DNA of 64,000 nucleotides, taken from positions 13,959 to 77,958 of the forward strand of contig JBBDRO010000103.1 of NCBI GenBank assembly GCA_040905425.1. Reading direction: 5' to 3'. Both the position numbers and the translations under genes were made by a program. Below, one piece after another: positions 43,336 to 64,000 of the stretch. This DNA comes from Gemmatimonadota bacterium (lineage in GTDB: Bacteria; Gemmatimonadota; Gemmatimonadetes; Longimicrobiales; RSA9). A model generated the notes under the pieces. That model saw only the letters and a program-made list of their open reading frames with translations. It did no database searches and had not been told where the DNA came from. Position 1 is the stretch's first letter; each line of letters opens with the position of its first letter.

Positions 43336-43459
43336 CGCATACCATGTGCGCCAGACCTAAGTGCCACTGTGCCGTTTGCCGAAGGGCAGGGGCATCCGCG
43401 CTGGCAGTTCGGGTGGCGACCTCCACGGAGCAGCAGCTGGGCGTGGAGCCCACACGCCG

Positions 43460-44020
43460 TTCGGCCTGATGTGCATCCAGATCATCGCTGCGGGCAGCGA
43501 TGTCTACCTGTTGGCCCACAACGCGCGGTTCGCGAAGCCAGCAACCAATGCGGCGGACCACCACCTGTCGCTCAACCCTGCTCTCAACCCGGACGACGTC
43601 TTCTGCTTCGGGCACAGGCGGACGGTCGCTAACGATTTCGTGGTACAATTCGAAAAGCGCGGCCTCCAACTCGATCGCAAGGCACGCGGCCGGGTCGCGG
43701 TATGTAGCCGGGTGCTGGTGCGGGAAACAGACGACGGCCGACTGCGGGCAATCTATCCATGCCCCGACGGGAGGGAGCACGAATGCACGTGGACACCAGC
43801 CGCACCCGAACGAAAACAGCGCCACCGCCGAAGCCGCCAGCTGCGGGCCCACGTAAACCGCCGCCCAAACCGCGGCAGATCACCCGTGGCGGCAAGCAGG
43901 CAGGATCGCTCTCGCCAAGCAAAGGCGCGTACGGTGCGGCCCCGACTGGCCTCACCCAGGCTCAACCCGAGTAGGGGACATTTCTATCCGTACTTGACAG
44001 CCGCCGCCGAACATGATTGA
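43460..44020 (+). mobile_element. truncated transposase remnant (C-terminal third of an rve/DDE-type, IS481/ISNCY-like transposase)
   Basis: YLLAHNARFAKPATNAADHHLSLNPALNPDDVFCFGHRRTVANDFVVQFEKRGLQLD...VLVRETDDGRLRAIY matches the remembered C-terminal pattern 'yN.RFa..P....daHrpl.....L..if......RtVsnD.vv.f.n..lQl'. The HTH and DDE catalytic parts are absent, and I found no inverted repeats. Confidence 0.55.
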
Positions 44021-44185
44021 CACTGCTGACACCTGAGGTGTACCATACTAGGGTCGACGCTCGTCCGTAGCACCACCGATACGCTCCAAAGCGTTCCAAC
44101 TATTCCCGGTGTCAGGAACATCCGATGATGGCTTTCCTCTCTGCTGCTCCAGCTACCGCTGGCCGCGACGGGTGCACCGCGGCTC

Positions 44186-46201: not shown

Positions 46202-46243
46202 GCTTGGCGCGACGATTCATTCATTTCTACACGGGGCCGTTCG

Positions 46244-51891: not shown

Positions 51892-54243
51892 CTAGTCGAT
51901 GACTTCCACCACCACTGGACCCGACGCCCTGGCCATACACGCCAGTCGGCAGGCGCCCGGCTCCAGCCCCTTCCTCTTGAGGGTCTTGAGCTCCTTTTCG
52001 GCGGGCTCGCTCAGGTGCTCGGCGCCCTCCAGAATGCGAATGGCATCGCAGCCGCACATGCCGATCCAGCATTCGTAGTCGATGTCCACCTCATTCTCGT
52101 CGGCCCATTCGAGCAACGTCTGGTCCTCGGCCAGAGGCCCTGCCAGTTCCTGTCCCTGAAAGGTGACGTGTGGACCGCTGGCCACTGGCGCCGCCACGGC
52201 CGCGTGGCTCTGCTGCTGGACCGCGGCGGCCGGCGGTGGCTCGAGCTTGGCTGCCGGCGGAGGGGGCGGTGAGGAAGTGGGGGCTACTGGCGGCTCCAAT
52301 GCGGGCGGCGCCACTGCTGGCATCGAAGTGGTCTTCTCGGGAAGGTCCTCACGTAGCCGCACCTCCAGCTGCTGACCGCCGATGCGGAAGACATCCCGGT
52401 GCCCGAGCTGCCGCTCCCCCTCGATCTTCAGGTAGGTGCCGTTTCGGCTTCCGAAGTCGTGAAGCTGAATTTCTCCGTCCTCGACCGAGAGGGAGAAATG
52501 GAATCGGGAGAGGGTGTGGTCGTCGTTGTCCAGGAGCACGTCGGGGTCTGACTTGCCGCCTGATCGTCCGAAGACGGTGGTGTCCTTCAATAGATACACG
52601 GCCACCTGTCGCCCGCGCGCGTCATAGTGGACGAGCTCGGGCGGCGCTCCGCGCACCTGGCGGGAGACCACGAGGATCTGCTGTCCGGCCCGGATCAGGT
52701 CGCTATGGCGAACGCTCACGGCACGATCGGGGAGCACCTTCTGGTAGGTACCTGCCCGGCTGCCGTCGTCCCGGAGGAAGTAGCCGCTGTCCCTCCGGGT
52801 GAGGGAGGCGTGGGCCTCCGAGAGCAGCGTGTCGTGTGGAAAGGCCAGGTCCGTACCTGTGCGCCCCAATGTGGTCATGCCACGGGGGTTCAGCCGAAAC
52901 TCCTCGGCTTCAACGCCGGCGGGCGTCAGCAGAACCAGGTATGCGCCCTCCGCGGCAGCGGCTCCCGGCTCCGGAGTTACGTCCGCCTCCGCCGCGGCGT
53001 CCTCCTCGTCTCCCCGCAGGCCTAGGACACCGCTTACCCGGCCGTCCGAGGTAGTGTCGCCGGCGAGGGGCTCCGCGTCGCGAATCACCACATTCACCTC
53101 GGCGCGGCCCTCGAGGCGCTGGTTGATGACCTCCGCCACGAACACTCCGTCGCGCAGACCGCTCTTGATGTTGCCCCGGTGCTTGACCTGGCGGAAGGTG
53201 TCGGGCGACCCGGCGAAATCGTCCGTCTCCAGGTAAGACTGGCTCAGCAGGTCTCCGATCACGTAGACGTTCGGCTGCTGCGTCTCCAGCAGTGGCGTCA
53301 CCGCCATGGTCTTCTTTCCCTTGGTGCCACCCGCCACCATGTCGACGCCTATGGTCGAGAGGAGGGCCTCGGGAATGTCCTCGCCGATGCAAGCGATACA
53401 CTGTGTCTTTGCGAACTCCAGGTGAAGCGTTTCCGGCGGCCGACCTGCGGGCGTCTTCCGGTCCACCCGTAGCGACAACACCTCCGTGCGGTCGGGAGTC
53501 GTAACAACGGCTACGGGCTCGCTCTCGGGGAAGTGCCGGATGTTGCCGTTGCCGATGTAAGCTTCGAAGAACTGCTCGGCGAGTGCCTTGGAGACCCGCG
53601 GCATCTTGGTGCCACGGTACGCCCAGTAGACCGGGCACTCGTCACCCGCGCCCACCTTTGCCCTCGAGATGGCCAGGACCGCCTCGGCGGCCGACGTGCC
53701 GCCGCCAACCACCAGCACCGGGCCCTTGGCATAACGATCCGCCTCATCGAGCCGATAGGCAATCCCGTCGGTGTTGCCGGGGATGTCGAACCGCCGGGGG
53801 ACTCCCCGTCCCAGCGCCACCACCACGTGCCGGGCTCGGAAGGTCACCTGTTCGCTCGCCTTGTGGTCCCACGCCACCACGTTCCACAGGTCATCGGCAC
53901 GCTCCATGGCGGTTAGTTCCACGCCGGTCCGAAAGGGTACGCCGAACGCACCGTAAAGCGCCTTCCAGGAACTGCACATCTCATCCTTGTCAATGGGTCC
54001 GAACTGGAGCGCTGCTATCATCTTGCCACCGGCCGGAAACCGCATGCGGTCCCCACCGCCGAAACTGGGGAGGATTAGCTTGTCAGACGGATAGTCCCGG
54101 ATTCGCTTCAGGATGTCATCGAAATCGATGACCAGAACCTCGAGCCGCAATTCCCTGGCGCGGAAAGCCGCGGCGGTGCCTGCGGGTCCGCCGCCGATCA
54201 CCAGGACGTCCAGTATCTCGGTGCCGCCGTTGATGTTGCTCAT
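51892..54243 (-). CDS. FAD/NAD(P)-binding oxidoreductase - FHA - FHA - 2Fe-2S ferredoxin-like fusion protein
   Basis: Dinucleotide motifs VLVIGGGPAGTAAAF, VLVVGGGTSAAEA, NVYVIGDL. FHA1: TTLGRTGTDLAFPHDTLLSEAHASL...SRAGTY. FHA2: TVFGRSGG...LSRFHFSLSVEDGEIQLHDFGSRNGTY. Then a Pro/Ala linker. C-terminal Cys cluster YECWIGMCGCDAIRI...GACRLACMA. Confidence 0.8.
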   Translation of the reverse strand: MSNINGGTEILDVLVIGGGPAGTAAAFRARELRLEVLVIDFDDILKRIRDYPSDKLILPSFGGGDRMRFPAGGKMIAALQFGPIDKDEMCSSWKALYGAFGVPFRTGVELTAMERADDLWNVVAWDHKASEQVTFRARHVVVALGRGVPRRFDIPGNTDGIAYRLDEADRYAKGPVLVVGGGTSAAEAVLAISRAKVGAGDECPVYWAYRGTKMPRVSKALAEQFFEAYIGNGNIRHFPESEPVAVVTTPDRTEVLSLRVDRKTPAGRPPETLHLEFAKTQCIACIGEDIPEALLSTIGVDMVAGGTKGKKTMAVTPLLETQQPNVYVIGDLLSQSYLETDDFAGSPDTFRQVKHRGNIKSGLRDGVFVAEVINQRLEGRAEVNVVIRDAEPLAGDTTSDGRVSGVLGLRGDEEDAAAEADVTPEPGAAAAEGAYLVLLTPAGVEAEEFRLNPRGMTTLGRTGTDLAFPHDTLLSEAHASLTRRDSGYFLRDDGSRAGTYQKVLPDRAVSVRHSDLIRAGQQILVVSRQVRGAPPELVHYDARGRQVAVYLLKDTTVFGRSGGKSDPDVLLDNDDHTLSRFHFSLSVEDGEIQLHDFGSRNGTYLKIEGERQLGHRDVFRIGGQQLEVRLREDLPEKTTSMPAVAPPALEPPVAPTSSPPPPPAAKLEPPPAAAVQQQSHAAVAAPVASGPHVTFQGQELAGPLAEDQTLLEWADENEVDIDYECWIGMCGCDAIRILEGAEHLSEPAEKELKTLKRKGLEPGACRLACMARASGPVVVEVID

Positions 54244-55214
54244 TGCTGGTGCAGTCTGAACTCGAGGTGCGGACCCAGTAGAAAACTGGCGCCCGGCGTA
54301 AGGGCCGCAGTTTCAATGCGGCGGTCGCCTATAAACGTGCCGTTGCGGGCACCCAGGTCCACCAGCTGAACGCCGTGCGCGCCCACGCGTACGATCGCGT
54401 GTTTGCGGGACAGCCACATGTCGGGATCCTCGATGCGGATATCGGCGTCAGAGCCCCGGCCGATGACGTTGTCACCCGGTGCGAGCGGAAACTGGAGAGG
54501 TCCGCCCGTGGGCAACAACACCACCAGTTCGTAGGCGGGCACGGCAGGCGCGACCCGGGTGGCGTCCTCACCACCGGGGGGCGCTGGCTTGGGCGCTCGG
54601 TGATCCACCGGCGGCGCAGGCGTCTTGCCGAGGTCGGGGAGCACGCCAAACCCGGCCATGTCCACGACAGTGTGCTGATTCCCGAGCGGAGCAGCGGGGG
54701 ATGGCTGCGCGGCCGCATCCGGCTCCTCCGGGCGGTTAGCGCCGCCCGCTGAGCCATTGCCCTCCGCCGGATCTTCCACACCCGGCGCAGGCGGCCCGAG
54801 ATCCGGCAGCGCCCCGAAGCCCATCATGTCCACCACCGTGTGCTCCGCGTCGGCTAACGCCTCGGGCGGCGAGGTGTCCGGTGGCGGAGAATCGGGCGGC
54901 CGGCGTACCATGCTGCGACTGAACACGAACTCCTGTCCGGCCACCTCGATGACATGCATCCGCTCCAGCGCCGCGCTGCTGCGGAGCGGCTGCCCGTCCA
55001 CCTGAGCGCTTCCACCTGCGGCCTCCTCCATCACGAAGCCCCCCTCCACGTGCCGGATGCGTGCGTGCACGGCGGCCAGGTCCGCGTCCTGTCCCACCGC
55101 TGGCCTGCCCGCCCCATCCACACCGAGGGCGGTGTTCCCAGCCAGTTCGAAGGTCGATCCAGCCAGCGCTCCTGTACGGCAGACCAGGCGTGCTGTGGGC
55201 GTCAGTGAAGTCAT
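54240..55214 (-). CDS. tandem FHA-domain protein
   Basis: The C-terminal FHA is canonical (NVIGRGSDADIRIEDPDMWLSRKHAIVRV...LGARNGTFI). The N-terminal FHA-like domain is degenerate (AAVHARIRHVEGGFVMEE). A Pro/Ala-rich linker carries a near-duplicated 'HTVVDM.GFG.LPDLG..PAP' segment. The stop overlaps the next start (ATGA). Confidence 0.8.
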   Translation of the reverse strand: MTSLTPTARLVCRTGALAGSTFELAGNTALGVDGAGRPAVGQDADLAAVHARIRHVEGGFVMEEAAGGSAQVDGQPLRSSAALERMHVIEVAGQEFVFSRSMVRRPPDSPPPDTSPPEALADAEHTVVDMMGFGALPDLGPPAPGVEDPAEGNGSAGGANRPEEPDAAAQPSPAAPLGNQHTVVDMAGFGVLPDLGKTPAPPVDHRAPKPAPPGGEDATRVAPAVPAYELVVLLPTGGPLQFPLAPGDNVIGRGSDADIRIEDPDMWLSRKHAIVRVGAHGVQLVDLGARNGTFIGDRRIETAALTPGASFLLGPHLEFRLHQQ

Positions 55215-55227
55215 GGCTACCTGGGGC

Positions 55228-56793
55228 TCAGCGGGACAGGGTGGACCAGTGCGACTTGTCCGGATGGAACTGATGACAGGACGTGCAGCTGGCGGGCGCA
55301 GTCCTGCTGCCGTGACACGAGCGGCAGCTCTCGATGGTGGGGAGATTCACGACCTCCGCCCGGTCCTGAGCAGCCGTTGCGTCCTCCCCCGACAAAAGCA
55401 GCTCGCGCGTGGGAATTACGTCGTGGCAGTCCATGCAGCGGGCGTGCACAACGTGCGCCCGGTGATCGAATTCCGCGCGCGCCAGACCGCCGTGGGCCGG
55501 TTGTTGCACGCGCCTGATGGTGGCGCGCTCCACCACGTGGCACTGGACGCACGGCTCGATGATGGCGCTGATGACGGCCTCGTATGCCGCTACGTCCATC
55601 GTCCCGGTAGCCACCCCGTCGGCCTCGTCGGCGGGGCCCACTCCGAAACGTGTGGCGTCCAGCGGCGCGTAGGGATCCTCCAGGCGGGCCTCCACGGCGG
55701 CCAGCAACTCCGACAGTTCGGCGATCTCGCGCTGCACCGCCGGCGAGGGATCGCCCCGCAGGCCCTCGATCTGCCTCGCCAGGGTGGCGATTGCCTCCCG
55801 GTGCAGCGCGCGGACCTGATCGGGCGGCACCTCCGCCGAGGTGTCCAGGAGGTCAGCCAGCTCAGCGCCCGGGTAGAGGTCGCCGCGCAACTTCCGGAGG
55901 TTGTGGAGGATCCACGGGTCGGCGTGGTAGACCGGCCGCTTCACCACGGAACCACCCAGATCGGTGAACTCACCGGCGTTCCAGAAGTATGCCCACTGGC
56001 TCCCGGGCTCACCGGCGCTGCGGATGTCACCCAACGTGGCAACGCCAGGGCCGCTGCCGGAGGCCACCCGGGCGGGCTCCGTGGCGTCGCTCCGAGAGAG
56101 ATGGCAGGCATCACAGTGCCGGTCGAAGGCCAGGGGCTGAAAGCCCTTCCCGTCCGCCTCAGGCGTGTGGCAGCTCAGGCACGCCGCCTCGGGCTCCACC
56201 AGTTCGCTTTCCGCCATCACCTCTCGCACGTGCTGCACGTGGGCGAATTTCAGATTGGCCACGCCCGCGTTGTCCTCCACGGCAAAATCGAATTCCGGGT
56301 GGTCCTTTTCAAAGGAATTCACCTCGTGGCAGGATACGCACCGGGCATCGGCCACTTCCTGCAGGGAGGCCTCTCTGCCCTGGTGCTCACGGTGACAGGT
56401 GCCGCAAGCCACCTCGTGGACATCGGCAGCCGAACGGTCCGCCTCCCCGGAGCGGTACATATAGTGGCGCGCGAACGTGTAGATCCCGAGCTCGCCGCCG
56501 GACTGCTGATGACAGCTCAGGCATTTGGCGTCGGCCGTGCCTTGAAGCGGCGTGTGGCAAGCGGCGCAGTCCCCGTCGAAGATAGCGTGACTGTCCGTGA
56601 GCGGCGCGCCGGCAATGGCCGTCCCCCGGCCCAGGAAAGCGCTGGCGAGCAGGAGCACGGCCAGGACGAGGCCAGCCAGCCCTCCGCATGCAAAGAGACG
56701 GCTGCGGCTCGTGAGCCGCGTGTACCGGTCCGCCACCGGGAGTCGGTGTGGCGAGAAGAATCCCTTCTCGAAGCGACGATCTTCCGAGCCCAC
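55228..56793 (-). CDS. membrane-anchored decaheme c-type cytochrome
   Basis: Ten CxxCH motifs read in the translation: CAACH, CLSCH, CGTCH, CVSCH, CLSCH, CDACH, then CVQCH, CMDCH, CRSCH, CTSCH. N-terminal TM/signal anchor LAGLVLAVLLLASAFL. GTG start 15 nt after the upstream stop. Confidence 0.85.
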   Translation of the reverse strand: MGSEDRRFEKGFFSPHRLPVADRYTRLTSRSRLFACGGLAGLVLAVLLLASAFLGRGTAIAGAPLTDSHAIFDGDCAACHTPLQGTADAKCLSCHQQSGGELGIYTFARHYMYRSGEADRSAADVHEVACGTCHREHQGREASLQEVADARCVSCHEVNSFEKDHPEFDFAVEDNAGVANLKFAHVQHVREVMAESELVEPEAACLSCHTPEADGKGFQPLAFDRHCDACHLSRSDATEPARVASGSGPGVATLGDIRSAGEPGSQWAYFWNAGEFTDLGGSVVKRPVYHADPWILHNLRKLRGDLYPGAELADLLDTSAEVPPDQVRALHREAIATLARQIEGLRGDPSPAVQREIAELSELLAAVEARLEDPYAPLDATRFGVGPADEADGVATGTMDVAAYEAVISAIIEPCVQCHVVERATIRRVQQPAHGGLARAEFDHRAHVVHARCMDCHDVIPTRELLLSGEDATAAQDRAEVVNLPTIESCRSCHGSRTAPASCTSCHQFHPDKSHWSTLSR

Positions 56794-56808
56794 GCGGTGC
56801 CTGCCAGG

Positions 56809-57651
56809 CTAGAAGTAGAGAATGAAGAACACGTGCAGCACCACCAACGCCAGCAGCGCCACAGCCGCGGGCAGGTGGAGCACGAGCCAGCCGCGCAGCA
56901 CGCGCTGCAGCGTATAGTGGACGTCCATCTCGTGCTTGGTGACGCGCAGCCCCTGCACCTCGTCCACCACCGCCGCGTCTTCCGCCTCCAGGGTGCACTT
57001 GAGCAGCTCGACTTCCCGTGTGCCGCGCAGGTGGGCGGCGGGGCTCCGGAACAGTTCACGATAGGTGACCCGCGGCCCCGCCATCACCGGCGCCACGCGC
57101 TTCTGGAACCAGCTTCGCACGCGTGGGTCTGATTCCGCCACCTTGGCCTCCGCGCGGGCGCGCAACTCGTCGACCAGACCGGGGATCCGCTCCAGGTGGA
57201 CCTCGAACGAGGAGGTGGTGTTCAGCACCTGCGGAACTGCCCGCTGCAGAAAGAGGCCCACCGCACCCGTCAGGACCACCCAGAGGCTCAGCAGCCAGAG
57301 CCCCGCCACCATTCCGCCCGAGGGCAGCCCGAAACCGGTGTGGTAGAGGAAGAGCAGGAAAAACAGGGTGCCCCCCCACAGGTGTACCTGCAAGTACGTC
57401 CGCGTGGGGCCGAGGCGCCGCACGGCGGGCATGGCGCGGCGGGCCGAGTAGAGCATTACTGCCAGGAGCGACAGCGCCGCCGCCACGCCGAGCCCGAGCC
57501 CGAGCGGGGAACTGGGTGCCACACCACCGGTGGCCATGCCTACCATGAATGCCACTGTAGCAGCAACGGCACCCAGGGTACTGAGCAGGGGAACAGGCCC
57601 GGAACGCACCACGCCTCCGGCACCGCGCAGGCGCTGAACCAGAGCCGTCAT
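56809..57651 (-). CDS. integral membrane protein with two His-N13-His pairs (candidate di-heme b transmembrane electron carrier)
   Basis: ATG 57651 overlaps the upstream stop (ATGA). About 5 TM helices. H90/H104 lie in YLQVHLWGGTLFFLLFLYHTG, and H260/H274 in WLVLHLPAAVALLALVVLHVFF. A soluble segment of about 115 aa sits between TM4 and TM5. The function is inference only. Confidence 0.6.
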   Translation of the reverse strand: MTALVQRLRGAGGVVRSGPVPLLSTLGAVAATVAFMVGMATGGVAPSSPLGLGLGVAAALSLLAVMLYSARRAMPAVRRLGPTRTYLQVHLWGGTLFFLLFLYHTGFGLPSGGMVAGLWLLSLWVVLTGAVGLFLQRAVPQVLNTTSSFEVHLERIPGLVDELRARAEAKVAESDPRVRSWFQKRVAPVMAGPRVTYRELFRSPAAHLRGTREVELLKCTLEAEDAAVVDEVQGLRVTKHEMDVHYTLQRVLRGWLVLHLPAAVALLALVVLHVFFILYF

Positions 57652-59246
57652 ACCGGCATCTCCGCTGCACGCTTCGCCTGCCGCAGTAGGTCGAACTCTT
57701 CGGTGCCGGAAACGCGGTGCGCGGCGCTGTGCGGGCAGCTGGCCACGCAGGCCGGTCCCTCCGGCGCCTGGTAGCAAAGATCGCACTTGCTGGCCACCGC
57801 CCGGGGCTGCCCACGCAAATAGCTGGGCACCGCATCGGGGCCCCACGAGGTGTCCAGGTCGTGCATGACGATGGAATCATACGGGCAGTTCTGCTCGCAG
57901 GCGCCGCAACCGATGCAGATGGCGGGATCGATTTCCACCACCGCACCCACGTTCAGCCGGCGGATGGCGCCCGTGGGGCACCCCACCAGGCACGTGGGAT
58001 CCTGACAGTGATAGCAGGAGCGGGCCACCATGAAGCCGTCGTAGACCTCACCTTCGCGCACGAACCGAGGGCGGCCGCCATGGGTGCTGGCGCACCCGCG
58101 CACGCAATCGTCGCAGCGGGTGCAGGCCTCGAGGTCAATGACCAGCACACTGTTCGCCTGCGCAATGCCCTTGGCGAGCGTGAAGTCGAGCAGATCCGAA
58201 CGGGCCAGGTCAGAGCGGGTGGCACCCATGATCTTGATCCGCTCCATGGCAGTGCCCCACAGGCGTTGCTCCAGTTCCGGCTGCGCGGCCAGGGCGTCCA
58301 GGAAGGCGTCCCGGCCGATGCGGACCAGCTCCGAGTTGCCTACTGAGGAGGCGCTCACCTGCCACACGCCGGAGCCGTCCACCATGAGTTCGGACTCCCC
58401 GAGCGAATCACCCTTGCTGAGGTACGATACGGCTACCTCGGCGGCGCCCAGCGCCTGTGAGAGCCGCAGGCAACCGGAGCGTACCAGGACGAAGTGCTCC
58501 GTGGGCTCGCCCTCCCGGACGGCCACCTCCCCCGGCTCGCACGACACCAGTTCGGCCGCGGCCACCAGCCGCTCAAGCGTTTCCGGCGTGCAGCCGTGCA
58601 GCAGCGGGGTGCCGGCCAGGTGCTGTCGCAGCATGCGGGCCTTGTAGAGCTCGTCCAGCCGTATCCGGAGCGCGCGTGATTTACGGCGCAGCTTGCGGAG
58701 CGCGGGCAGGCGGATCTGCAGTAGCGTACAGGCGCTCGCCGTGCGGGCGGTGGCGGATTGCGGCCAACCGTTCATGGCGCCGATCTCGCCAAACAGTTCG
58801 CCAGGTCCCAAGCGCATGCACTCGTCCGCAGCCACGTCGAAGTCCATGGACGCCAGCATCACCGTTCCGCCGCTATGGCTCTCCCGATCGGCTTCGTAGG
58901 GGGCTTCACCCGCCACCGCGCCTGCGCCGCTTCCGAAGATGGGCTGAACCGCGCTCTCCGGGCGCGCCAGGAAGACCTCCACTTCGCCGCTCACCACCAG
59001 GAATGCCAGGTCCAGGTAGCTGCCCTGCTCGAAGATCACCGCCCCCGCGTTCCACTCCGCCAGCGATAGGTCGGGGCTCAACTCCTTCAGGAGGTCGTCA
59101 TCGAATTCCTGCAAGATGCCGATCTTTTTGAGCTGCGCGGGGGTGGGCAGGCTGGAGATGCTACGGATCCCTGTGTGCTCGCCGAAGGAGGACCAGCGGT
59201 CGCCGTGCTGGCGACTCATCATGACCAGGGTCCCTGATGCTTCCAT
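57648..59246 (-). CDS. two cyclic-nucleotide-binding domains fused to a 4x[4Fe-4S] DmsB/NrfC-like ferredoxin
   Basis: cNMP-binding 1: GAVIFEQGSYLDLAFLVVSGEVEV...GELFGEIGAMNGWPQSATARTA. cNMP-binding 2: GEVAVREGEPTEHFVLVRSGCLRL...GDSLGESELM. Four Cys clusters: CTRCDDCVRGC, CYHCQDPTCLVGCP, CIGCGACEQNCP, CDLCYQAPEGPACVASCP. No twin-arginine or signal sequence. Confidence 0.85.
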   Translation of the reverse strand: MEASGTLVMMSRQHGDRWSSFGEHTGIRSISSLPTPAQLKKIGILQEFDDDLLKELSPDLSLAEWNAGAVIFEQGSYLDLAFLVVSGEVEVFLARPESAVQPIFGSGAGAVAGEAPYEADRESHSGGTVMLASMDFDVAADECMRLGPGELFGEIGAMNGWPQSATARTASACTLLQIRLPALRKLRRKSRALRIRLDELYKARMLRQHLAGTPLLHGCTPETLERLVAAAELVSCEPGEVAVREGEPTEHFVLVRSGCLRLSQALGAAEVAVSYLSKGDSLGESELMVDGSGVWQVSASSVGNSELVRIGRDAFLDALAAQPELEQRLWGTAMERIKIMGATRSDLARSDLLDFTLAKGIAQANSVLVIDLEACTRCDDCVRGCASTHGGRPRFVREGEVYDGFMVARSCYHCQDPTCLVGCPTGAIRRLNVGAVVEIDPAICIGCGACEQNCPYDSIVMHDLDTSWGPDAVPSYLRGQPRAVASKCDLCYQAPEGPACVASCPHSAAHRVSGTEEFDLLRQAKRAAEMPV

Positions 59247-59258
59247 GGGCGTTCCGAC

Positions 59259-61334
59259 TCAATTGCCGCGGCCGATAGCCGCGTAGATGCGCTCCAGGCG
59301 CTGCTTCACCAGGAGCAGGACTTCCTCGGGTGTCATGGAGCCCGGCGCAACGTCAATCGGCTCCAGATCCAGGCTGCCGGATACGGTGCGTGCCGGTGCC
59401 ATCCCCGGCATAGGGGGCGGCGCCGCAAAACCGGCGCTCCCTCCGGTCGACCCGCCCGGGCTGCTGCCCACCGCGGTGAGAGGACGGCTCGGCGGCAGCG
59501 GCTCCACCACCTCCACCTGAGGTATGGGCCGGTCGGCCACGGCGCTCGTGAACGCCGCATTCAGCGCTCCCTCGGCCACCTCCGGATACGCGGCCCCGCG
59601 TTTCCCCCGCTCCAACTGCGGCTTCTTGCCTGGCCAGTGGGCTATGCTCCGATTGGCGGTGCCGATGTCATAGCCGCTACCCGAGGGGTGTCCGGCCGCG
59701 AGCAGCCGCTCATCACTGACGTGGTGACAGCCCGCGCACGTCCGTGCGCGCTCGTCAGCCTTCTTGAGGGCACGCATTCCCGCCTGTGGATTGCCCCCCT
59801 CCTGGTGCGGCTCCAGGAAGGCGGCGCCCGCGCCGTGGCAGCTCTCGCAGCTGACACCCGGCTCCACCACTCGCATGGACCGCTCATCCACGGTACCGTG
59901 GCAGCTCATGCAGATCTGATCCCCCCGCCCCATGGCGGCCGGGCCGATGCCGTACAACGTGGCGATCTTCCGTGCTCGAGGATCGTCGCCGAGGAGGCGG
60001 CGGCCAGTCTGCTGATGGGGGTCCCCGTACCACCACTCCTCCGCTTCGCCATGGCAGGAGGCGCACTCGCCGACGCCCACGGTGCCGTTCTGCGCTGGGC
60101 TGTGCCACGCCGGCTGGCGCCGGATCTCTCCCGGCATGTCGGGCGGCGGAGTGACCGCTGGGGGGCTGGCGCCCGGGGCTGCTGGCGCGGTCCCCCCGTC
60201 ACCCCCTGGCCCGGCGCTGGGTTCCACGGTGGTGCCGCTGCCCACCGAGCCGGTGGCCGCGGCCACCGGCGCAACAACGGGCGCTCCCGCGATCACCGTA
60301 TCCAGCACCGCCAGGACCGCCGCGTCCGCGGAGCGCGCGAACTGCTGCCCTATTCCACGAATCCTCTCCGCCGCGGTCTCCAGCTCCGCCCGGTTGCTGG
60401 CCACCAGGCGCAGGTCCTTCCCGGTTCTCAGCACCTCCTCCACAGCCGGCACGGAAGCGACGGTCGCCACCTCCTCCAGCGCCCGATACGCACCCTGCGC
60501 CGCGCGTTCCATGGATCGCGCGTAGCGCCCCTCCGCGGTGGCGCCTGCCAGGCCACGGAGCGCGTATTCGTACGCCAGGATCCGACCGGTGACGAACATC
60601 ATGCGATTTCGCTCGGGGGTGAGTTCCCGGTTCACACCCTCGGTGCCGTGCAGGAAGTTGTGCCGGACCTGCTCCACCCTGGCCACCAGGTCGAAGTCCG
60701 TGGTGCCCGTCCGGTGTTCACCGCGGTTGACAAGCTCTTCTTGCGGCACGGTGTGGCATTCAAAACAGTTGGCCACCACGGCGTAGATGTCCGCCGACGG
60801 CGGCAGCATGCCCTCCGCCGCGGCGGCGGCGATGCGCTGTTCCCTGGCCGCGGCCGATTCGTCGCCGCTGGACGGCAGCTTATTGTGGACATTCAGCCAT
60901 CCCTGGGCCGGGCCATGGCACGACTCGCACGAAACGCCGGCGACCGCCTTCCGGTCCGGCCCGACCGTGTAGTGGCACCGCATGCAGACCGCTTCCTGGC
61001 GCTTCGTGACCCGCAGGTTCATGCGCTGCAGAATGGCCTTTGCGTTCTCGTCCTTGTGCAGCGTCTCGTACCCCTGCGCGTGCTTCGTCTCCTGCCAGAC
61101 CTCCCATTCGTCAGTATGGCAGACGCCGCACGGCTCGTAGCCCTTGGCGTTCTCCACCACTACGCGGTCGGGATCGATGCGGAGGAAGGGCGAGTCGGAA
61201 AAGTCGGCCGGCTCCTGGGCCAGCAGGGCGTACGCCCCGGCCAGTCCAAGCGTGCCGAGCCCCGCCAGCCCGGCGGCGAGCCGGCGGCGGGGCTGGCGCA
61301 ATTGCCGGTAGCGGAACGACTTCAACGGTGGCAT
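59259..61334 (-). CDS. octaheme c-type cytochrome (two tetraheme modules)
   Basis: Signal/anchor LAGLGTLGLAGAYALLAQ. CxxCH x8: CGVCH, CMRCH, CESCH, CFECH, then CASCH, CMSCH, CESCH, CAGCH. The two halves are visibly paralogous. Confidence 0.85.
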   Translation of the reverse strand: MPPLKSFRYRQLRQPRRRLAAGLAGLGTLGLAGAYALLAQEPADFSDSPFLRIDPDRVVVENAKGYEPCGVCHTDEWEVWQETKHAQGYETLHKDENAKAILQRMNLRVTKRQEAVCMRCHYTVGPDRKAVAGVSCESCHGPAQGWLNVHNKLPSSGDESAAAREQRIAAAAAEGMLPPSADIYAVVANCFECHTVPQEELVNRGEHRTGTTDFDLVARVEQVRHNFLHGTEGVNRELTPERNRMMFVTGRILAYEYALRGLAGATAEGRYARSMERAAQGAYRALEEVATVASVPAVEEVLRTGKDLRLVASNRAELETAAERIRGIGQQFARSADAAVLAVLDTVIAGAPVVAPVAAATGSVGSGTTVEPSAGPGGDGGTAPAAPGASPPAVTPPPDMPGEIRRQPAWHSPAQNGTVGVGECASCHGEAEEWWYGDPHQQTGRRLLGDDPRARKIATLYGIGPAAMGRGDQICMSCHGTVDERSMRVVEPGVSCESCHGAGAAFLEPHQEGGNPQAGMRALKKADERARTCAGCHHVSDERLLAAGHPSGSGYDIGTANRSIAHWPGKKPQLERGKRGAAYPEVAEGALNAAFTSAVADRPIPQVEVVEPLPPSRPLTAVGSSPGGSTGGSAGFAAPPPMPGMAPARTVSGSLDLEPIDVAPGSMTPEEVLLLVKQRLERIYAAIGRGN

Positions 61335-61367
61335 GCGGGCACTACAGACTCCGGGGAAGCACCACGA

Positions 61368-62876
61368 CTAGAACTTGTGCCGGAGTTCGAGCCGGACGCC
61401 GCTGATGGTCCCCAGATCTTTGCGATGGCCGTACATGCCGTCGGCCCGCAGGATAATGGCGTTGGTCAGCGTACGCTGCGCCCGCACGCCGAACGCTACC
61501 TGTTCGCCTGGCAGTCCGGGGCTTTCCACGAGCGGATAGCTGCCCGCCACTTCCACCACGAGTTGCCGGTCGAAGCTGGAGCCGAGCAGGTTCAGGCCGA
61601 GCGCTCCACCTACCGCGTCCTGCGCGGTCGCGGTCAGCGCGGGGAGCGCCGTGACCGCATCCGGTTCGAAGCTGAGTCCGGTGTTGCGGAGGACGCCGCC
61701 TGCTCCCGGATCCCGGGCCGCGGAGACAGGCCGGTCGAACCCGGCGAAGAGGTTCAGGTACGGTACCACCGTGGAGGGTCGCGAGGTGATGAGGGAGTTC
61801 TCCAGCAGCAACAGGTGCCCGCCGGGGGCAAGCGCACTGCCTGCGCTGACGGCGCCGACGTAGCGCAAGGAATTGGAGATGAACGTGCCGTAGCGCTTCG
61901 AAAAGGAGACGGCATAGGAGTGGTAGGACTGATCGGCCTCGGAGTCGTCACCCACGTAGGCGTACCCCGCCTCCACATAGCCACCGTAAGCCTCGATAAA
62001 CGCGTTCACGCCCGCCAGCTGACCCGTCTCCCCGATTGCCGGAGAGGCGCCATGGGACACCTTGTCGAAGCCGACGAAGAAGCTGATGTCGTAGTTCGAC
62101 CAGTCGAGCGCCGCCGAGTTGCGGGCTGGAATCGTGAACGCGGCGCCGGTGAAGGCGTCTTCGAGCCAGGTCCCGTTGTGGAAGACCAGAGGCATGAGCC
62201 CCGCTGCCACCGGCAGGTCGAAGGGTGCCGCCCGGCCAGCGAGTCCGCCGACGATGGCGCCCAGGTCTCCCTCGAAGAAGAGCGCCACCGGGATGGCCGA
62301 GAAGTTCTGGTCGAATGTGCTCGTGTCCGCGGCGAAATCGAAGCGGGTCAGGACACCGTCGTTCTCCAGCGGCCGGAATGTGGCATGGATACGCTCGGTT
62401 GCCGTGAGCTTCAGATCCACGTCCAGGTTCAGACGCGCCGCCACCGTCCCGCCCTCGTCGTCATCCACGCTATTGAAGCCGCTGGCCGCCCGCAGGTCAC
62501 CGTATAACAGGAGCTGCGGGATCAGCAGGTTCGTGCCGCCCAGCGGGGTCCCGCCCCGCCGCAGCGGCCCTGCGCCGTACATGTCGCTGCCGAGTTCCAG
62601 CAGCGGCCGCTGGGTGGGATTCAGGTGCTTGGCTCCGTAGATGTCGAGCTGCGCCTGATAGTCGTACATGGTGTCGCTGTAGACCGGATCGGGCCCGAAG
62701 GCTTCAGCCGTATGCGGCACCACACGCACCCGCGGGTCCGTCTGCTGGGCGGTGGCATCGCCGGCCAGCAGGACGCTGGCCACCGCCATTGCGCCCAGCG
62801 GAATCGACCGGCCGTTGCGCGTCGACGTGCGGGTCGCGGCCCCAGCCCGTGCCTGGGAGGAGAGTTGGCTTGTCAT
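61368..62876 (-). CDS. outer-membrane porin-like beta-barrel protein
   Basis: ATG 62876 overlaps the upstream stop (TGATG). Signal peptide GAMAVASVLLAGDATAQ. Long alternating-polarity beta-strand pattern rich in Gly and aromatics. C-terminal ...GVRLELRHKF (terminal Phe, an OMP signature). Confidence 0.7.
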   Translation of the reverse strand: MTSQLSSQARAGAATRTSTRNGRSIPLGAMAVASVLLAGDATAQQTDPRVRVVPHTAEAFGPDPVYSDTMYDYQAQLDIYGAKHLNPTQRPLLELGSDMYGAGPLRRGGTPLGGTNLLIPQLLLYGDLRAASGFNSVDDDEGGTVAARLNLDVDLKLTATERIHATFRPLENDGVLTRFDFAADTSTFDQNFSAIPVALFFEGDLGAIVGGLAGRAAPFDLPVAAGLMPLVFHNGTWLEDAFTGAAFTIPARNSAALDWSNYDISFFVGFDKVSHGASPAIGETGQLAGVNAFIEAYGGYVEAGYAYVGDDSEADQSYHSYAVSFSKRYGTFISNSLRYVGAVSAGSALAPGGHLLLLENSLITSRPSTVVPYLNLFAGFDRPVSAARDPGAGGVLRNTGLSFEPDAVTALPALTATAQDAVGGALGLNLLGSSFDRQLVVEVAGSYPLVESPGLPGEQVAFGVRAQRTLTNAIILRADGMYGHRKDLGTISGVRLELRHKF

Positions 62877-64000
62877 CAGCGGACCTCGAACTCGACGGTG
62901 TACGGATGGATGTCCAGCATCCACTCGTTCATGGCTCGCTCCATCTCCTCCGTGGCGCCCACGAACTTCATGAAGTAGATGGGCTCGGCGCGGCTGCGAA
63001 GGCGCACCGCCAGCCGGTAGGTACCGGGCCTGGTGAGCAGGTCGCCCGGAACGGTGTACGTTGCGTCACGACTGGAAAGCGGCGGCAGCGAGCGGCTCTC
63101 CATGCGCACGCCCGGCGGATGGTTCAGCACCGAAACCGGTTGGCCCGCCGGGCGGATGAACGGGAGCTGATCCACGTCCAGGTTGATGGGCAGATACATC
63201 TCGCGGTCGGTACCCTTGACGTTCTGGGTGAGGAACTTCGTCTGCAGATTGAAGAGCTGGTCGTCGTGCGGGATACGGCCCGCCAGCACGTCCAGGGAAT
63301 GCAGGTCCGCCATGTCGCCGTTGCTGTCCAGGTAACCCGACTCCCAGATCCGCTGTCCGTCAGGGTCGATTAGCGCCACATTCAGCCACAGTTCCGGCTG
63401 CGCGCCCAGGGAGCCGGAGGGAAGGTTGTGCCCCGAGTTGGTGTTGGTAAGCGTGTAATGGAACTTCAGCGCCCCCCCGCGCCGGGGGTCACCGCTGAAG
63501 AACGGTCCGTCCAGCTTCGAACCGTTCTCCATCACCTGCCGGCGCAGTTCCCGCTTTTCCTCCAGCTTGGCCAGGTTCTGCTGGACGATGTCGCGGGCCT
63601 CGTAGCGGTCGTCCGGCTCGGCCCACATCTCGGGGAAGTTCACCTGCACCTGCCCGCCGGCCAGTCGGTCCTCGAACGCGTCCGTACCCCATCCCGCACG
63701 GAAATCGAAGCGCAGCCACTCGTCGATGGTCCAGCGCTCCGCGGCCGGATTGTGGGGAAAGACACCCGGATGCGCGCTGGCGTAACCGGGCCCGTAGAAG
63801 GTGTGGTTCGTGTGCTTCCGGGTCGGGTTGATGGGGACCCCCGCAAGCACCGCCGACGGCGCAGTCGCGTAGCCGTCCGGCTGCCCCGGCGTCTGGCCCA
63901 TGTGGCAGTCCTGGCAAGAGATCCCCGCGTCGGCGGCAGGGGAGGCCCGGTACTGGTCCCAGACCACCTCCAGCTTGATGCCGGGGTGCACTGCTACCTG
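62876..64000 (-). CDS. multiheme-cytochrome family protein, 5' end outside the window (C-terminal 374 aa seen)
   Basis: The frame stays open to the window edge; the listed GTG 63991 is not a real start. One CxxCH is visible (ISCQDCHMG). A large heme-free C-terminal domain follows (TNTNSGHNLPSGSLGAQPELWLNVALIDPDGQRIWESGY...). Confidence 0.7.
   Translation of the reverse strand, partial: QVAVHPGIKLEVVWDQYRASPAADAGISCQDCHMGQTPGQPDGYATAPSAVLAGVPINPTRKHTNHTFYGPGYASAHPGVFPHNPAAERWTIDEWLRFDFRAGWGTDAFEDRLAGGQVQVNFPEMWAEPDDRYEARDIVQQNLAKLEEKRELRRQVMENGSKLDGPFFSGDPRRGGALKFHYTLTNTNSGHNLPSGSLGAQPELWLNVALIDPDGQRIWESGYLDSNGDMADLHSLDVLAGRIPHDDQLFNLQTKFLTQNVKGTDREMYLPINLDVDQLPFIRPAGQPVSVLNHPPGVRMESRSLPPLSSRDATYTVPGDLLTRPGTYRLAVRLRSRAEPIYFMKFVGATEEMERAMNEWMLDIHPYTVEFEVR

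Follow-up and report, generated by a model that had tools for sequence, protein, structure and literature searches.

In the genome of an uncultured Gemmatimonadota bacterium, one run of genes places cytoplasmic, inner-membrane and outer-membrane redox proteins next to signalling domains, which raises the question of where its electrons would enter, which way they would flow and what would control them. The run lies at 51892-64000 of the stretch analysed here (the window; 64,000 nucleotides of contig JBBDRO010000103.1), and an earlier note had read it as a candidate signal-gated conduit from the cytoplasm to the cell surface. Eight minus-strand genes (G1-G8, in order of transcription) have junctions of -1, 33, 12, -4, 15, 13 and -4 nt, the overlaps reading TGATG or ATGA. 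The ORF coordinates reproduce that layout exactly as first described, and every domain then named was found again by Pfam domain searches, Cys and haem motifs, and inspection for signal peptides and transmembrane (TM) helices.

62876..64000, minus strand: G1, secreted pentahaem cytochrome of 584 aa (PHC/ExtKL/c552-like), of which the C-terminal 374 codons lie in the window
61368..62876, minus strand: G2, outer-membrane beta-barrel protein of 502 aa; signal peptide, last residue Phe (...HKF)
59259..61334, minus strand: G3, secreted octahaem cytochrome of two tetrahaem c554-like modules
57648..59246, minus strand: G4, predicted cytoplasmic protein with tandem cyclic-nucleotide-binding-fold domains and a HycB-type four-[4Fe-4S] ferredoxin domain (Pfam, Cys motifs)
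56809..57651, minus strand: G5, five-helix inner-membrane protein, candidate di-haem-b transmembrane wire (PCC3/PCC4 'IMP' family)
55228..56793, minus strand: G6, decahaem cytochrome (10 CxxCH) with one N-terminal TM helix
54240..55214, minus strand: G7, cytoplasmic two-FHA protein (Pfam FHA 5.6e-14; two FHA domains in homologues)
51892..54243, minus strand: G8, thioredoxin-reductase/YpdA-like FAD/NAD(P) flavoprotein followed by FHA, FHA and a 2Fe-2S ferredoxin domain (Pfam, PDB)

The arrangement is far beyond chance, and the eight genes are one conserved unit. Comparative genomics finds the cluster order recurring across genomes in three versions. The full eight-gene order is common to loci L001, L002, L003, L036, L037, L038 and L039 and occurs in other Gemmatimonadota, in Rhodothermales and in one related genome; Gammaproteobacteria have a four-gene core (L014-L023). 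The seven-gene version (L033 and L034, from Elusimicrobia and Proteobacteria) has the form of PCC4, a putative porin-cytochrome c cluster known from genomics prediction only (He et al. 2017, PMC5566968).

G8 and G4 form the candidate cytoplasmic entry to this unit. In Pfam, G8 matches Pyr_redox_2 (4.6e-20), Pyr_redox_3, FHA in two stretches (2.4e-18) and Fer2 (2.5e-6), and in the PDB it matches 7a76 (2e-9) and Ferredoxin-4; its cysteines are Cys725/730/732/765/769. G4 matches cNMP_binding (1.7e-29) and Fer4 families and carries 16 Cys in four ferredoxin motifs, and its tandem domains match those of PKA-R in the PDB. We place G4 in the cytoplasm because of its nucleotide-binding-fold domains, because sequence inspection finds neither a signal peptide nor a hydrophobic N-terminus, and because its closest structures, HycB3/HycB, are cytoplasmic. 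Natural gene fusions give a probable wiring order of the redox parts: eight gammaproteobacterial loci have the FAD oxidoreductase and the cNMP-ferredoxin in one gene, and the cNMP-ferredoxin is fused to a G5-type membrane protein in the metagenomic proteins P0271, P0308 and P0408. In L033 and L034, G8 is replaced by an unrelated FNR-type reductase (FAD_binding_6/NAD_binding_1/Fer2), and the conserved function would therefore be 'NAD(P)H flavoprotein plus 2Fe-2S'. Together, the fusions and the reductase replacement support the proposed path from a flavoprotein with 2Fe-2S through a four-cluster ferredoxin to a four-His membrane protein.

That membrane protein, G5, has [W/Y]x3Hx13H motifs on TM3 and TM5 (H90/H104 and H259/H273, each pair 13 residues apart), [S/T]GxxG on TM4 and a cytoplasmic helical insert of ~100 aa; its AlphaFold2 model has a pLDDT of 81.7. 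The family comprises 3,700 clusters. Its four His do not vary within or across phyla, W255 and P261 are likewise fixed across phyla at 22-28% identity, and at least two Hx13H motifs occur in 141 of 149 family representatives. Because G4 is fused at the N-terminus and the R71-R72 loop lies inside, the His-bearing helices are probably parallel, which would put one His pair near each of the two membrane faces. Comparison with haem-b proteins gave nothing significant (Pfam Ferric_reduct E = 0.5, Foldseek on the PDB E > 0.5, an empty PDB-sequence profile search), and G5 could alternatively react with quinone. In G6, a short N-terminal tail lies in the cytoplasm and the haem domain in the periplasm; the G6 homologues in Gammaproteobacteria and Ferrigenium bear an FHA domain on the cytoplasmic N-terminus.

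The outer part of the unit consists of two secreted cytochromes and the barrel. Only one CxxCH of G1 falls within the window, where it had been noted as a partial cytochrome; the complete gene in a public contig (L032:256-2010) encodes 584 aa with a signal peptide, 5 CxxCH and a large non-haem C-terminal domain. The operon starts with this gene, which is preceded by 255 nt of non-coding sequence and then the contig end. G1 matches the T. tepidum pentahaem c552 (PDB 5ze8, E = 2e-8) and the NCBIfam ExtKL model at 1.8e-8, the latter far under the cut-off (33 bits vs 250). The G1 stop and the G2 start share 1 nt, and the pair is conserved. G2 has no Pfam match; it has >1,320 homologues, some fused to OmpA_C, and a conserved N-terminal segment of ~75 aa outside the barrel. 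Its AlphaFold2 model is an all-beta barrel (pLDDT 78.9) with Foldseek matches to MOMP, OccK/OprD and AlgE (E = 1e-12 to 1e-9), so that the predicted fold resembles the 18-stranded OprD/AlgE/MOMP channels. G3 contains 8 CxxCH, matches Pfam Cytochrome_C554 at 1.2e-21 and PDB cytochrome c554 (1bvb) at 1e-7, and joins its two tetrahaem modules by a long helical, low-complexity linker; PCC4 versions have a tetrahaem protein in its place.

Signalling domains are found on the redox proteins and in the genes next to them, on the opposite strand:

50577..51470, plus strand: class III adenylate/guanylate cyclase with a C-terminal FHA domain, convergent neighbour (Pfam Guanylate_cyc 4e-17, FHA 1.3e-8)
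41884..49171, plus strand: neighbouring signalling cluster (Pfam), with the three genes below
41884-42873, plus strand: PP2C phosphatase (Pfam)
44186-46201, plus strand: Ser/Thr kinase with DUF4384 (Pfam)
46244-49171, plus strand: caspase-like peptidase with PD40 repeats (Pfam)

The phospho-threonine-binding residues GR...SxxH...NG are kept in the C-terminal FHA domain of G7 and in the second FHA domain of G8. In this copy of G7, Pfam detects the C-terminal domain only; the N-terminal half aligns with canonical FHA domains of homologues but has lost those residues, and the linker holds two HTVVDMxGFGxLPDLG repeats. The kinase and PP2C neighbours are candidate writer and eraser of phospho-threonine marks for these FHA domains, an association suggested by their position, and the FHA-cyclase is a candidate source of a nucleotide signal. 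Gating by cAMP, as first proposed, is not clearly supported, given that both nucleotide-binding domains of G4 carry Gln at the canonical phosphate-binding (PBC) Arg, as do 116/118 and 85/118 sequences of this clade in the two domains; hence, these domains may bind a ligand other than cAMP or cGMP. A Ser/Thr kinase adjoins the cluster in the window and in L004, L007, L008, L009, L011, L012, L021 and L038, and a cyclase in the window and in L018, L020 and L039, the last having a convergent FHA-GAF-cyclase 4 nt after G8. In Woeseiaceae, CHASE2-cyclases lie upstream of the cluster. Neither a kinase nor a cyclase lies within 10 kb of the cluster in L036 and L037, so this adjacency is recurrent, not universal. 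The link to FHA and cyclic-nucleotide-type signalling is thus seen in several lineages.

These parts suggest an envelope-spanning electron-transfer chain of the PCC4 type, with its inner end in the cytoplasm rather than (only) at the quinone pool, which would run outward under post-translational control, a reading in which our confidence is about evenly balanced. Counting against it are the missing Fe-S gene in PCC4 subgroup I, the absence of a significant match between G5 and haem-b proteins, and a possible reaction of G5 with quinone. Judged from motifs, a chain of flavin, iron-sulfur and ~25 haem cofactors appears to wire cytoplasmic NAD(P)H to outer-membrane cytochromes. NAD(P)H would reduce the FAD of G8, and electrons would pass to its 2Fe-2S cluster and then to the four [4Fe-4S] clusters of G4. 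Two b-type haems on the four invariant His of G5 would carry them across the inner membrane to the membrane-anchored decahaem G6 and then to the octahaem G3, with the pentahaem G1, translationally coupled to the barrel G2, as the likely endpoint. We favour an outward direction, in which reducing equivalents leave the cytoplasm for an acceptor in the periplasm or at the outer membrane, because electrons then run downhill and with the help of the membrane potential. This route would conserve no energy and would deplete NAD(P)H, hence the proposed post-translational control. Phospho-threonine marks, written by the neighbouring kinase and erased by PP2C, may be read by the FHA domains of G7, G8 and the proteobacterial G6 homologue, and the tandem nucleotide-binding folds of G4 may read a small ligand, possibly the product of the adjacent FHA-cyclase.

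Three other readings have to be weighed against this one. In one, G2 would sheath G3 or G1 and the operon would encode a true porin-cytochrome conduit for the surface reduction of insoluble Fe(III)/Mn(IV) or electrodes, like MtrCAB or Geobacter Pcc, as the earlier note had supposed in naming MtrCAB and OmaB/OmbB/OmcB. The translational coupling of a barrel gene to a multihaem cytochrome gene and the conservation of the G1-G2 pair speak for this, the closest known pairing being ExtI-ExtKL of the Geobacter extracellular-electron-transfer cluster, and KSB1-type variants carry a 1,226-aa decahaem protein with LVIVD repeats typical of surface proteins. However, the G2 model matches 18-stranded channels and not the 26-stranded MtrB, and Pfam and NCBIfam searches of the operon proteins gave no match to MtrB (including MtrB/PioB for G2) or MtrA family models, those to DmsE/MtrA being far under cut-off. 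By sequence inspection, the signal peptides of G1 and G3 are without a lipobox and none of the operon's cytochromes is a lipoprotein; nor did He et al. see an extracellular cytochrome in PCC4 (PMC5566968). We hence regard a conduit of this kind as unlikely.

Inward flow is the direction that He et al. gave to PCC4, with the donor outside and quinone inside (PMC5566968): an extracellular or periplasmic donor such as Fe(II) or Mn(II) would feed the cytochromes, G5 and the quinone pool, or pass electrons on to Fe-S, FAD and NAD(P)+ for biosynthesis. Reaction with quinone is common for di-haem cytochromes b, and PCC4 and the FHA-multihaem core are present in Zetaproteobacteria, Hyphomicrobium, Gallionellaceae and Ferrigenium, all tied to metal oxidation, with Fe(II) oxidisers among the hosts of the family. 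Nevertheless, this direction seems doubtful for the operon, given that electrons moving inward to cytoplasmic NAD(P)+ would have to climb in potential and work against the membrane potential, that no energy-coupling subunit is encoded, that the fusions bind G5 to a cytoplasmic ferredoxin and not to a quinone site, and that the hosts here (Gemmatimonadota, Rhodothermales, KSB1, Elusimicrobia) are not known metal oxidisers. Least probable to us, and quite improbable, is a redox sensor instead of a bulk conduit, in which the chain would inform FHA, kinase and cyclase outputs controlling behaviour about redox conditions in the periplasm or outside the cell, or about how these balance with NAD(P)H. 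FHA, kinase, PP2C, cyclase, nucleotide-binding fold and caspase-like peptidase do recur at unusual density, and variants repeatedly include HbpS-like domains, a Pfam family tied to haem handling. Yet a sensor built from 23 c-type haems, a dedicated outer-membrane protein and an NAD(P)H flavoprotein would be costly, the forms in Elusimicrobia and Proteobacteria retain the entire redox chain without the FHA proteins, and in Pfam none of the redox proteins has a DNA-binding or kinase output domain.

The operon resembles several known systems in part. With MtrCAB of Shewanella and OmaB/OmbB/OmcB of Geobacter it shares the general idea of multihaem cytochromes with an outer-membrane barrel, but it has no MtrB-like 26-strand barrel, no MtrA/DmsE decahaem at cut-off, no surface lipoprotein cytochrome and no CymA/ImcH/CbcL quinol dehydrogenase. 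The extHIJKLMNOPQS cluster of Geobacter sulfurreducens likewise places a porin-like protein (ExtI) next to a pentahaem of the ExtKL/c552 family and unites 10-12-haem cytochromes (the ExtM/N multihaems) with an inner-membrane redox module. Its module is the Rieske/cytochrome b pair ExtO/P (quinol), whereas flavoprotein, ferredoxin and G5 take this place here; ExtKL is a selenoprotein, and ExtI is annotated as phosphate-porin-related whereas G2 has no Pfam match. The Hmc/Tmc complexes of sulfate reducers join multihaem cytochromes in the periplasm to Fe-S proteins in the cytoplasm by way of a membrane cytochrome b, with no dedicated step at quinone, and have no flavoprotein, outer-membrane protein or signalling domains. 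Their protein families differ from those of the operon, with NCBIfam HmcA/HmcB matches far under cut-off.

NADPH oxidase/ferric reductase domain proteins and E. coli MsrQ-Fre pair a cytoplasmic-side NAD(P)H flavoprotein with two b haems on His pairs 13 apart in the third and fifth helices, and their electron export, like that proposed for the operon, is outward, electrogenic and in need of regulation. Homology to the operon is not detectable, G5 has five helices vs six, and the operon interposes five Fe-S clusters and adds a periplasmic extension of 23 haems. A comparison with such proteins is also made in PMC5566968. Closer is the Ferrigenium straubiae cluster of an FHA-nonahaem cytochrome, a five-TM protein and a [4Fe-4S] protein, called novel and of unknown function by its authors, who regard the membrane protein as not redox-active (bioRxiv 10.64898/2026.01.22.701106); a 'forkhead-associated protein' with 10 haems is also reported from 27 Gallionellaceae genomes (PMC9900912). 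This three-gene core corresponds to G6-G5-G4 with FHA on the cytoplasmic side. Unlike in the window, the FHA domain is fused to the cytochrome, and a porin, pentahaem cytochrome and flavoprotein are not discussed there.

The closest known system is subgroup II of PCC4, and the operon is a variant of the PCC4 cluster. PCC4 combines a porin with 4-, 5- and 10-haem cytochromes, an Fe-S protein (lacking in subgroup I) and a five-helix membrane protein with Wx3Hx13H on TM3 and TM5 and [S/T]GxxG on TM4 (PMC5566968). Subgroup II shares with the operon the porin, three multihaem cytochromes (those with 5 and 10 haems being the same), additional 'redox genes' and a PF13247 Fe-S gene just upstream of the gene for a ~270-300-aa inner-membrane protein, and the exact 4+10+5-haem PCC4 clusters L033 and L034 are 66-67% identical to the window in G1 and 48-51% in G2. 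The earlier note knew of no characterised system so arranged, and none has been characterised, but the gene set was already described as the putative PCC4 and the core noted in Ferrigenium; of the note's wider interpretation, the conserved unit, the cytoplasmic entry and the signalling link are supported, but the MtrCAB-like conduit and clear cAMP control are not. The operon departs from PCC4 in its octahaem vs tetrahaem cytochrome, its TrxR-like flavoprotein-FHA-FHA-2Fe-2S vs an FNR-type reductase, its two-FHA protein, its Gemmatimonadota host and its kinase/PP2C/cyclase neighbourhood; nucleotide-binding domains, FHA, kinases and NAD(P)H entry are absent from the 2017 paper (PMC5566968) in the text as searched. 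Two additions to the PCC4-type cluster are thus both new and supported: a cytoplasmic entry through NAD(P)H-flavoprotein, 2Fe-2S and poly-ferredoxin, and an association, seen repeatedly, with FHA domains, Ser/Thr kinases and cyclases.

The operon at 51892-64000 consists of eight minus-strand ORFs (G1 to G8, numbered 5' to 3') whose junctions are exactly -1, 33, 12, -4, 15, 13 and -4 nt, with TGATG/ATGA overlaps as first reported, in a window with a G+C of about 68% from a metagenome-assembled Gemmatimonadota genome. They encode a pentahaem cytochrome (G1), a barrel protein (G2), an octahaem cytochrome (G3), a cNMP-ferredoxin (G4), a five-helix membrane protein (G5), a TM-anchored decahaem cytochrome (G6), a two-FHA protein (G7, 54240-55214) and a FAD/NAD(P) flavoprotein-FHA-FHA-2Fe-2S fusion (G8, 51892-54243). 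Pfam bore out the earlier domain list for G3, G4, G6, G7 and G8, and none of the eight proteins scored above the cut-off of an NCBIfam model. G1, described earlier as partial with one CxxCH, is so within the window but is whole on the public contig JBBDKN010000181.1 (GCA_040879335.1), which also carries the region and reaches 1.1 kb past the window end; there it encodes 584 aa with a signal peptide and five CxxCH motifs. Upstream of G1 are 255 nt without an ORF, after which the contig ends. Relatives have tRNA synthetase genes, with no relation to the operon, upstream of G1, and a convergent or unrelated gene downstream of G8; judged from these flanks, the earlier figure of at least eight genes becomes eight and no more. 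Promoter and terminator signals in the operon and ahead of G1 were no more frequent than expected by chance, and an Rfam scan of that upstream region and of all of 40-64 kb was negative for riboswitches and other RNAs. G1, G2 and G3 each begin with a Sec-type signal peptide that lacks a lipobox; G4, G7 and G8 have no signal peptide.

Elsewhere in the window, a GAF-GGDEF diguanylate cyclase (14132-16135, minus strand) adjoins a pyridoxal-dependent decarboxylase and has no evident link to the operon. The stretch at 8000-14000 has a very high G+C (0.76-0.77) and includes a minus-strand ORF (10982-13261; 759 aa, no Pfam match, first-codon-position G+C of 0.92) that overlaps long ORFs on the opposite strand, so gene calls in 8000-14000 are uncertain.

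A check of related genomes found the eight-gene order conserved, in Gemmatimonadota (loci L001-L003, L038 and L039), a MAG of Rhodothermales (L037) and a 3.5-Mb closed genome (L036). A shorter cluster of seven genes, in Elusimicrobia (L033) and in a MAG labelled 'Proteobacteria' (L034), encodes a tetrahaem cytochrome, the cNMP-ferredoxin, a 271-aa membrane protein, a decahaem cytochrome, a pentahaem cytochrome, the barrel and an FNR-type reductase. The latter (FAD_binding_6, NAD_binding_1 and Fer2) stands where G8 would be, and these two loci have no FHA proteins. In eight of ten gammaproteobacterial loci (L014-L023), a FAD oxidoreductase and the cNMP-ferredoxin are joined in one ORF of approximately 800 aa, followed in most of the fused loci by detectable G5 and G6 homologues. 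An ORF-calling artefact was rejected as the source of this fusion because the ORF is single and uninterrupted in eight loci. A cNMP-ferredoxin and G5 are also joined in one polypeptide in the metagenomic proteins P0271, P0308 and P0408. Together with the displacement of the flavoprotein by an unrelated reductase, the fusions are the best evidence at hand for the wiring and indicate that flavoprotein, ferredoxin and membrane protein are in series, with the ferredoxin on the cytoplasmic face. The cytoplasmic entry path proposed in the earlier note is thus supported, with its cofactors, like all those named here, assigned from motifs.

Some loci depart from these arrangements. On a nanopore-derived Woeseiaceae contig (L018, 8878-11257) the FAD oxidoreductase and cNMP-ferredoxin lie in overlapping split ORFs, for which a frameshift error is likely; such splitting is confined to this locus. 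The G6 homologue of L018, the sole one scanned with Pfam, has an N-terminal FHA domain, and an HbpS-like protein follows the cluster. In L006 and L009, from KSB1 and 'Cytophagia'-labelled MAGs, the genes stand in a permuted order with a different outer module, comprising an HbpS-like protein, a 630-650-aa protein without a Pfam match and a 1,226-1,406-aa decahaem cytochrome with LVIVD repeats.

Searches of Pfam and NCBIfam, run as far as E <= 10, assigned the membrane protein G5 to no family; Ferric_reduct (PF01794) matches at E = 0.5 over 54 residues. AlphaFold2 models G5 (pLDDT 81.7) with five long helices, TM4 and TM5 being separated by approximately 100 residues of helical insert. A Foldseek search of the model against the PDB gave no match below E = 0.5, and a G5 profile matched no PDB sequence. 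The Pfam, Foldseek and PDB profile searches therefore detected no relationship of G5 to a known haem-b family and did not demonstrate that it is homologous to NOX/FRD, cytochrome b561 or NarI-type proteins. G5 has YLQVH-x13-H on TM3, TGAVG on TM4 and WLVLH-x13-H on TM5. H90, H104, H259, H273, R71 and R72 are invariant in 21 close homologues, and the four His, W255 and P261 are kept at only 22-28% identity in loci of Rhodothermales, Elusimicrobia, 'Proteobacteria', Woeseiaceae, Azotimanducaceae and Pseudomonadales. Distant homologues keep [W/Y]x3Hx13H on TM3 and TM5 and [S/T]GxxG on TM4, with W and S at the positions where G5 has Y (TM3) and T (TM4). A profile search of 1.84 billion representatives, clustered at 50% identity, returned 3,700 clusters at E <= 1e-3 and 1,554 at E <= 1e-10; at least two Hx13H motifs occur in 141 of the 149 best family representatives. 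The family, for which Pfam has no model, spans at least six phyla. Binding of two b haems by G5 is strongly suggested by these motifs rather than by any demonstrated homology. The fusion of G4 to G5 would place the G5 N-terminus inside; TM3 and TM5 would then run parallel, and each membrane face would have a His pair close to it. In one family member, P0397 (883 aa), the cytoplasmic TM4-TM5 loop has grown to approximately 650 residues, with repeated 'KTPLEILREK'-like motifs and two CxxC...C zinc-ribbon-like segments, which points to this loop as a variable cytoplasmic platform.

Directly upstream, overlapping the G5 start by 4 nt, G4 matches Pfam cNMP_binding (1.7e-29) and 4Fe-4S dicluster families, among them Fer4_11 (PF13247, 3.1e-8), as well as HycB3 (7.7e-19) and HycB (2.8e-15). 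Its 16 Cys form four classical motifs, CTRCDDCVRGC, CYHCQDPTCLVGC, CIGCGACEQNC and CDLCYQAPEGPACVASC, predicted to hold four [4Fe-4S] clusters as in ferredoxins of the HycB/HydN/DmsB type. The tandem nucleotide-fold domains resemble PKA regulatory subunits, and their phosphate-binding cassettes keep Gly-Glu, with the cyclic-phosphate Arg replaced by Gln in both. Among 118 homologues in the clade of the window's operon, one cassette reads PQSAT (FGEIGALNGWPQSVT) in 116 and the other WQxT in 85, and the canonical R[ST]A is kept in gammaproteobacterial, Elusimicrobia and 'Proteobacteria' homologues. Such conservation suggests that the nucleotide pocket is probably functional. For the cAMP signalling suggested in the earlier note, G4 has the cNMP fold but lacks the conserved Arg in both domains, and its ligand may not be cAMP or cGMP.

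The second group of candidate regulatory domains lies on G7 and G8. G7 (Pfam FHA, 5.6e-14) had been described as a tandem-FHA protein, which holds for its C-terminal domain, with complete phospho-threonine residues (GR, SRKH, RNGT); its N-terminal half can be aligned to a canonical FHA of homologues, but here and in L001 these residues have been lost. In G8, FHA2 is complete (GR, SRFH, SRNGT) and FHA1 lacks the Asn. The C-terminal FHA of G7 and FHA2 of G8 thus appear, at the level of residues, to retain what a phospho-threonine reader needs. The linker of G7 (residues about 125-200) contains two HTVVDMxGFGxLPDLG repeats, and Gemmatimonadota homologues have two to three copies of T-x-V-D-x3-F-x2-LP with a conserved T-x-x-D pattern; since this pattern resembles a classical FHA target, the repeats may, speculatively, be phospho-sites or docking motifs. 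The remainder of G8 comprises Pyr_redox_2/3 (Pyr_redox_2, 4.6e-20) and Fer2 in Pfam, with VIGGGPAG at residues 15-22 as the N-terminal GxGxxG FAD site. It matches 7a76 at 2e-9 and the YpdA model TIGR04018 at 1e-17, under that model's cut-off. The sole CxxC (282-285) is in the strand before the returning FAD segment, and the NADPH domain has no redox-active CxxC. By these features G8 is predicted to be a two-dinucleotide-binding flavoprotein of the TrxR/YpdA/FNR-like kind.

On the outer side, G1 matches the pentahaem c552 of T. tepidum (PDB 5ze8) at E = 2e-8 over the first three haems and scores 33 bits against the ExtKL model NF040886 (cut-off 250), consistent with distant membership of the pentahaem family that includes T. 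tepidum c552 and Geobacter ExtKL. This family and its pairing with the porin-like ExtI have been described (PMC11976967, PMC5877670). All five CxxCH motifs and at least six further His are kept in six G1 homologues, which suggests bis-His electron-transfer haems. An NrfA-like enzyme was considered and rejected: with CxxCH motifs only, no CxxCK and the additional invariant His, G1 is most simply an electron carrier. G3 (Pfam Cytochrome_C554, 1.2e-21) has eight CxxCH motifs in two c554-like tetrahaem modules separated by a long linker, and G6 has a single N-terminal TM helix followed by ten CxxCH motifs.

G2 matches nothing in Pfam or NCBIfam, even at E <= 10. It has over 1,320 homologues, 45-65% identical and from many phyla, and a few of them carry an attached OmpA C-terminal domain. 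AlphaFold2, given 35 homologues, models G2 as an all-beta barrel with about 19 strands (pLDDT 78.9), and the model's Foldseek matches are C. jejuni MOMP, OccK/OprD channels and AlgE (E = 1e-12 to 1e-9). MOMP, OccK/OprD and AlgE are 18-stranded substrate channels, whereas MtrB is a 26-stranded sheath. An outer-membrane barrel is thus upheld and a likeness to the Mtr sheath is not. A segment of approximately 75 residues before the barrel is strongly conserved and poorly modelled by AlphaFold2, and could be a docking site for G1. A lone G2 homologue, 49% identical, lies between transposase genes with no cytochromes nearby (L035, 8001-9524), so the barrel is not always a cluster member. In a comparison covering L003, L033, L034, L036 and L037, G1 and G2 are 66-67% and 48-51% identical to their counterparts in the Elusimicrobia and 'Proteobacteria' MAGs, and lower (41-44% and about 30%) to those in another Gemmatimonadota locus or Rhodothermales; the similarity of G3-G8, unlike that of G1 and G2, tracks taxonomy. 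These identities suggest that the outer pentahaem-barrel pair is swapped as a module.

Signalling genes lie next to the operon, on the far side of G8:

41884-51470, plus strand (one minus-strand ORF, 42953-43852): signalling island, G+C 0.63-0.66, below its surroundings
50577-51470, plus strand: cyclase-FHA gene, convergent to G8

The island encodes a PP2C phosphatase, a 299-aa protein, a Ser/Thr kinase with DUF4384 at 44186-46201, a C14 caspase-like peptidase with PD40 repeats, a protein of approximately 330 aa and the cyclase-FHA protein; the peptidase, kinase and PP2C lie within 41884-49171, farther off than the cyclase-FHA gene. A convergent FHA-GAF-cyclase gene lies 4 nt past G8 in L039, and a Ser/Thr kinase gene follows G8 on the same strand in L038. 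Six loci of the KSB1/'Cytophagia' type have kinase-FGE-sulfatase two genes past G4, and in Woeseiaceae there are CHASE2-cyclases at L018 and L020 and a kinase and caspase-like peptidase adjoining the cluster at L021. L036 and L037 have neither a kinase nor a cyclase within 10 kb. The association with signalling genes recurs across phyla and is not universal.

For the direction of electron flow, we favour outward transfer from NAD(P)H through the chain; with low-potential bis-His haems this direction would be exergonic, the membrane potential would aid it, and it would explain the regulatory domains around a chain that bypasses energy conservation. The opposite direction was proposed for PCC4, a putative porin-cytochrome cluster defined by genome comparison, in which electrons from metal oxidation flow inward to quinone (He et al. 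2017, PMC5566968); this model is a less favoured possibility here and matches the occurrence in metal oxidisers. To reach NAD(P)+, inward electrons would have to move uphill, and the operon encodes no coupling subunit. The large cofactor investment and the existence of FHA-free variants make a purely sensory role less likely. We tentatively propose, as a possible though doubtful reading, quinone-independent and NAD(P)H-fed electron export by a bacterial machine that would act like a regulated NADPH oxidase, with 23 c-type haems continuing the path to an outer-membrane partner. FHA-read Ser/Thr phosphorylation and a small nucleotide-like ligand on the ferredoxin subunit would switch the flux, and G5 would represent an unrecognised di-haem cytochrome b family.

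To our knowledge, the known Gram-negative routes for exporting respiratory electrons all begin at the quinone pool. If the proposal is true, export would start at cytoplasmic NAD(P)H and Fe-S clusters instead, a bioenergetic design of another kind; as such a route would be dissipative, with the membrane potential driving it, it would call for a switch. That FHA domains, Ser/Thr kinases, PP2C and cyclases are repeatedly coupled to the cluster suggests that an electron-transport chain is gated directly and post-translationally; such gating is documented for no multihaem system in the literature searched. The G5 family is large, lacks a Pfam model and is carried by the environmentally abundant Gemmatimonadota, KSB1, Rhodothermales, Woeseiaceae, Gallionellaceae and Zetaproteobacteria, so that a functional assignment would alter the interpretation of metagenomes with regard to metal cycling and redox balance.

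The MtrCAB/Pcc-type conduit of the earlier note was not supported by comparison with known systems: G2 has no MtrB_PioB match in Pfam even at E <= 10 and resembles 18-stranded barrels, not the large cytochrome-enclosing MtrB/PioB/OmbB type of 20-26 strands, the operon proteins reach 32 bits against the MtrA/DmsE model TIGR03508 (cut-off 192) and 15 bits against the OmcA/MtrC model (cut-off 209), and G1 and G3 have no lipobox. Ferric reductase domain proteins (NOX/FRE/MsrQ) bind two b haems through two His pairs 13 residues apart on TM3 and TM5; in G5 the motif is present and invariant as a putative haem site, with five helices against their six-helix fold and no detected homology to PF01794. 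The arrangement had been thought to be without a characterised precedent, and our literature searches indeed found no characterised equivalent, the only related entries being PCC4 (2017), a Ferrigenium preprint (2026) and a table entry in a Gallionellaceae pangenome; it had, however, already been predicted as PCC4, for which we found no experimental follow-up in the literature. The Ferrigenium preprint calls an FHA-nonahaem/five-TM/[4Fe-4S] trio novel and of unknown function, and states that FHA domains with multihaem cytochromes had not been reported before.

The window's operon is a PCC4 variant. PCC4 unites a porin, three multihaem cytochromes of the periplasm (4, 5 and 10 haems), other redox genes and a conserved inner-membrane protein with five helices, SGxxG and two Wx3Hx13H motifs, for which two b haems were proposed as in ferric reductase domains; in its subgroup II a gene for an Fe-S (PF13247) protein precedes the membrane-protein gene (PMC5566968). 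Here the porin corresponds to G2, a predicted barrel with Foldseek matches to outer-membrane channels, and the counts of 5 and 10 haems to G1 and G6, whereas the 4 of PCC4 compares with 8 in G3 (two tetrahaem modules). G5 has five TM helices, an SGxxG-type TM4 and Hx13H on TM3 and TM5, and, as in subgroup II, a PF13247 gene (G4) lies directly upstream of it. The closest characterised relatives of the outer part of the operon are the Geobacter ext genes. The Elusimicrobia and 'Proteobacteria' loci fit PCC4 exactly, with 4 + 10 + 5 haems, and the PCC4 hypothesis is now open to concrete experiments.
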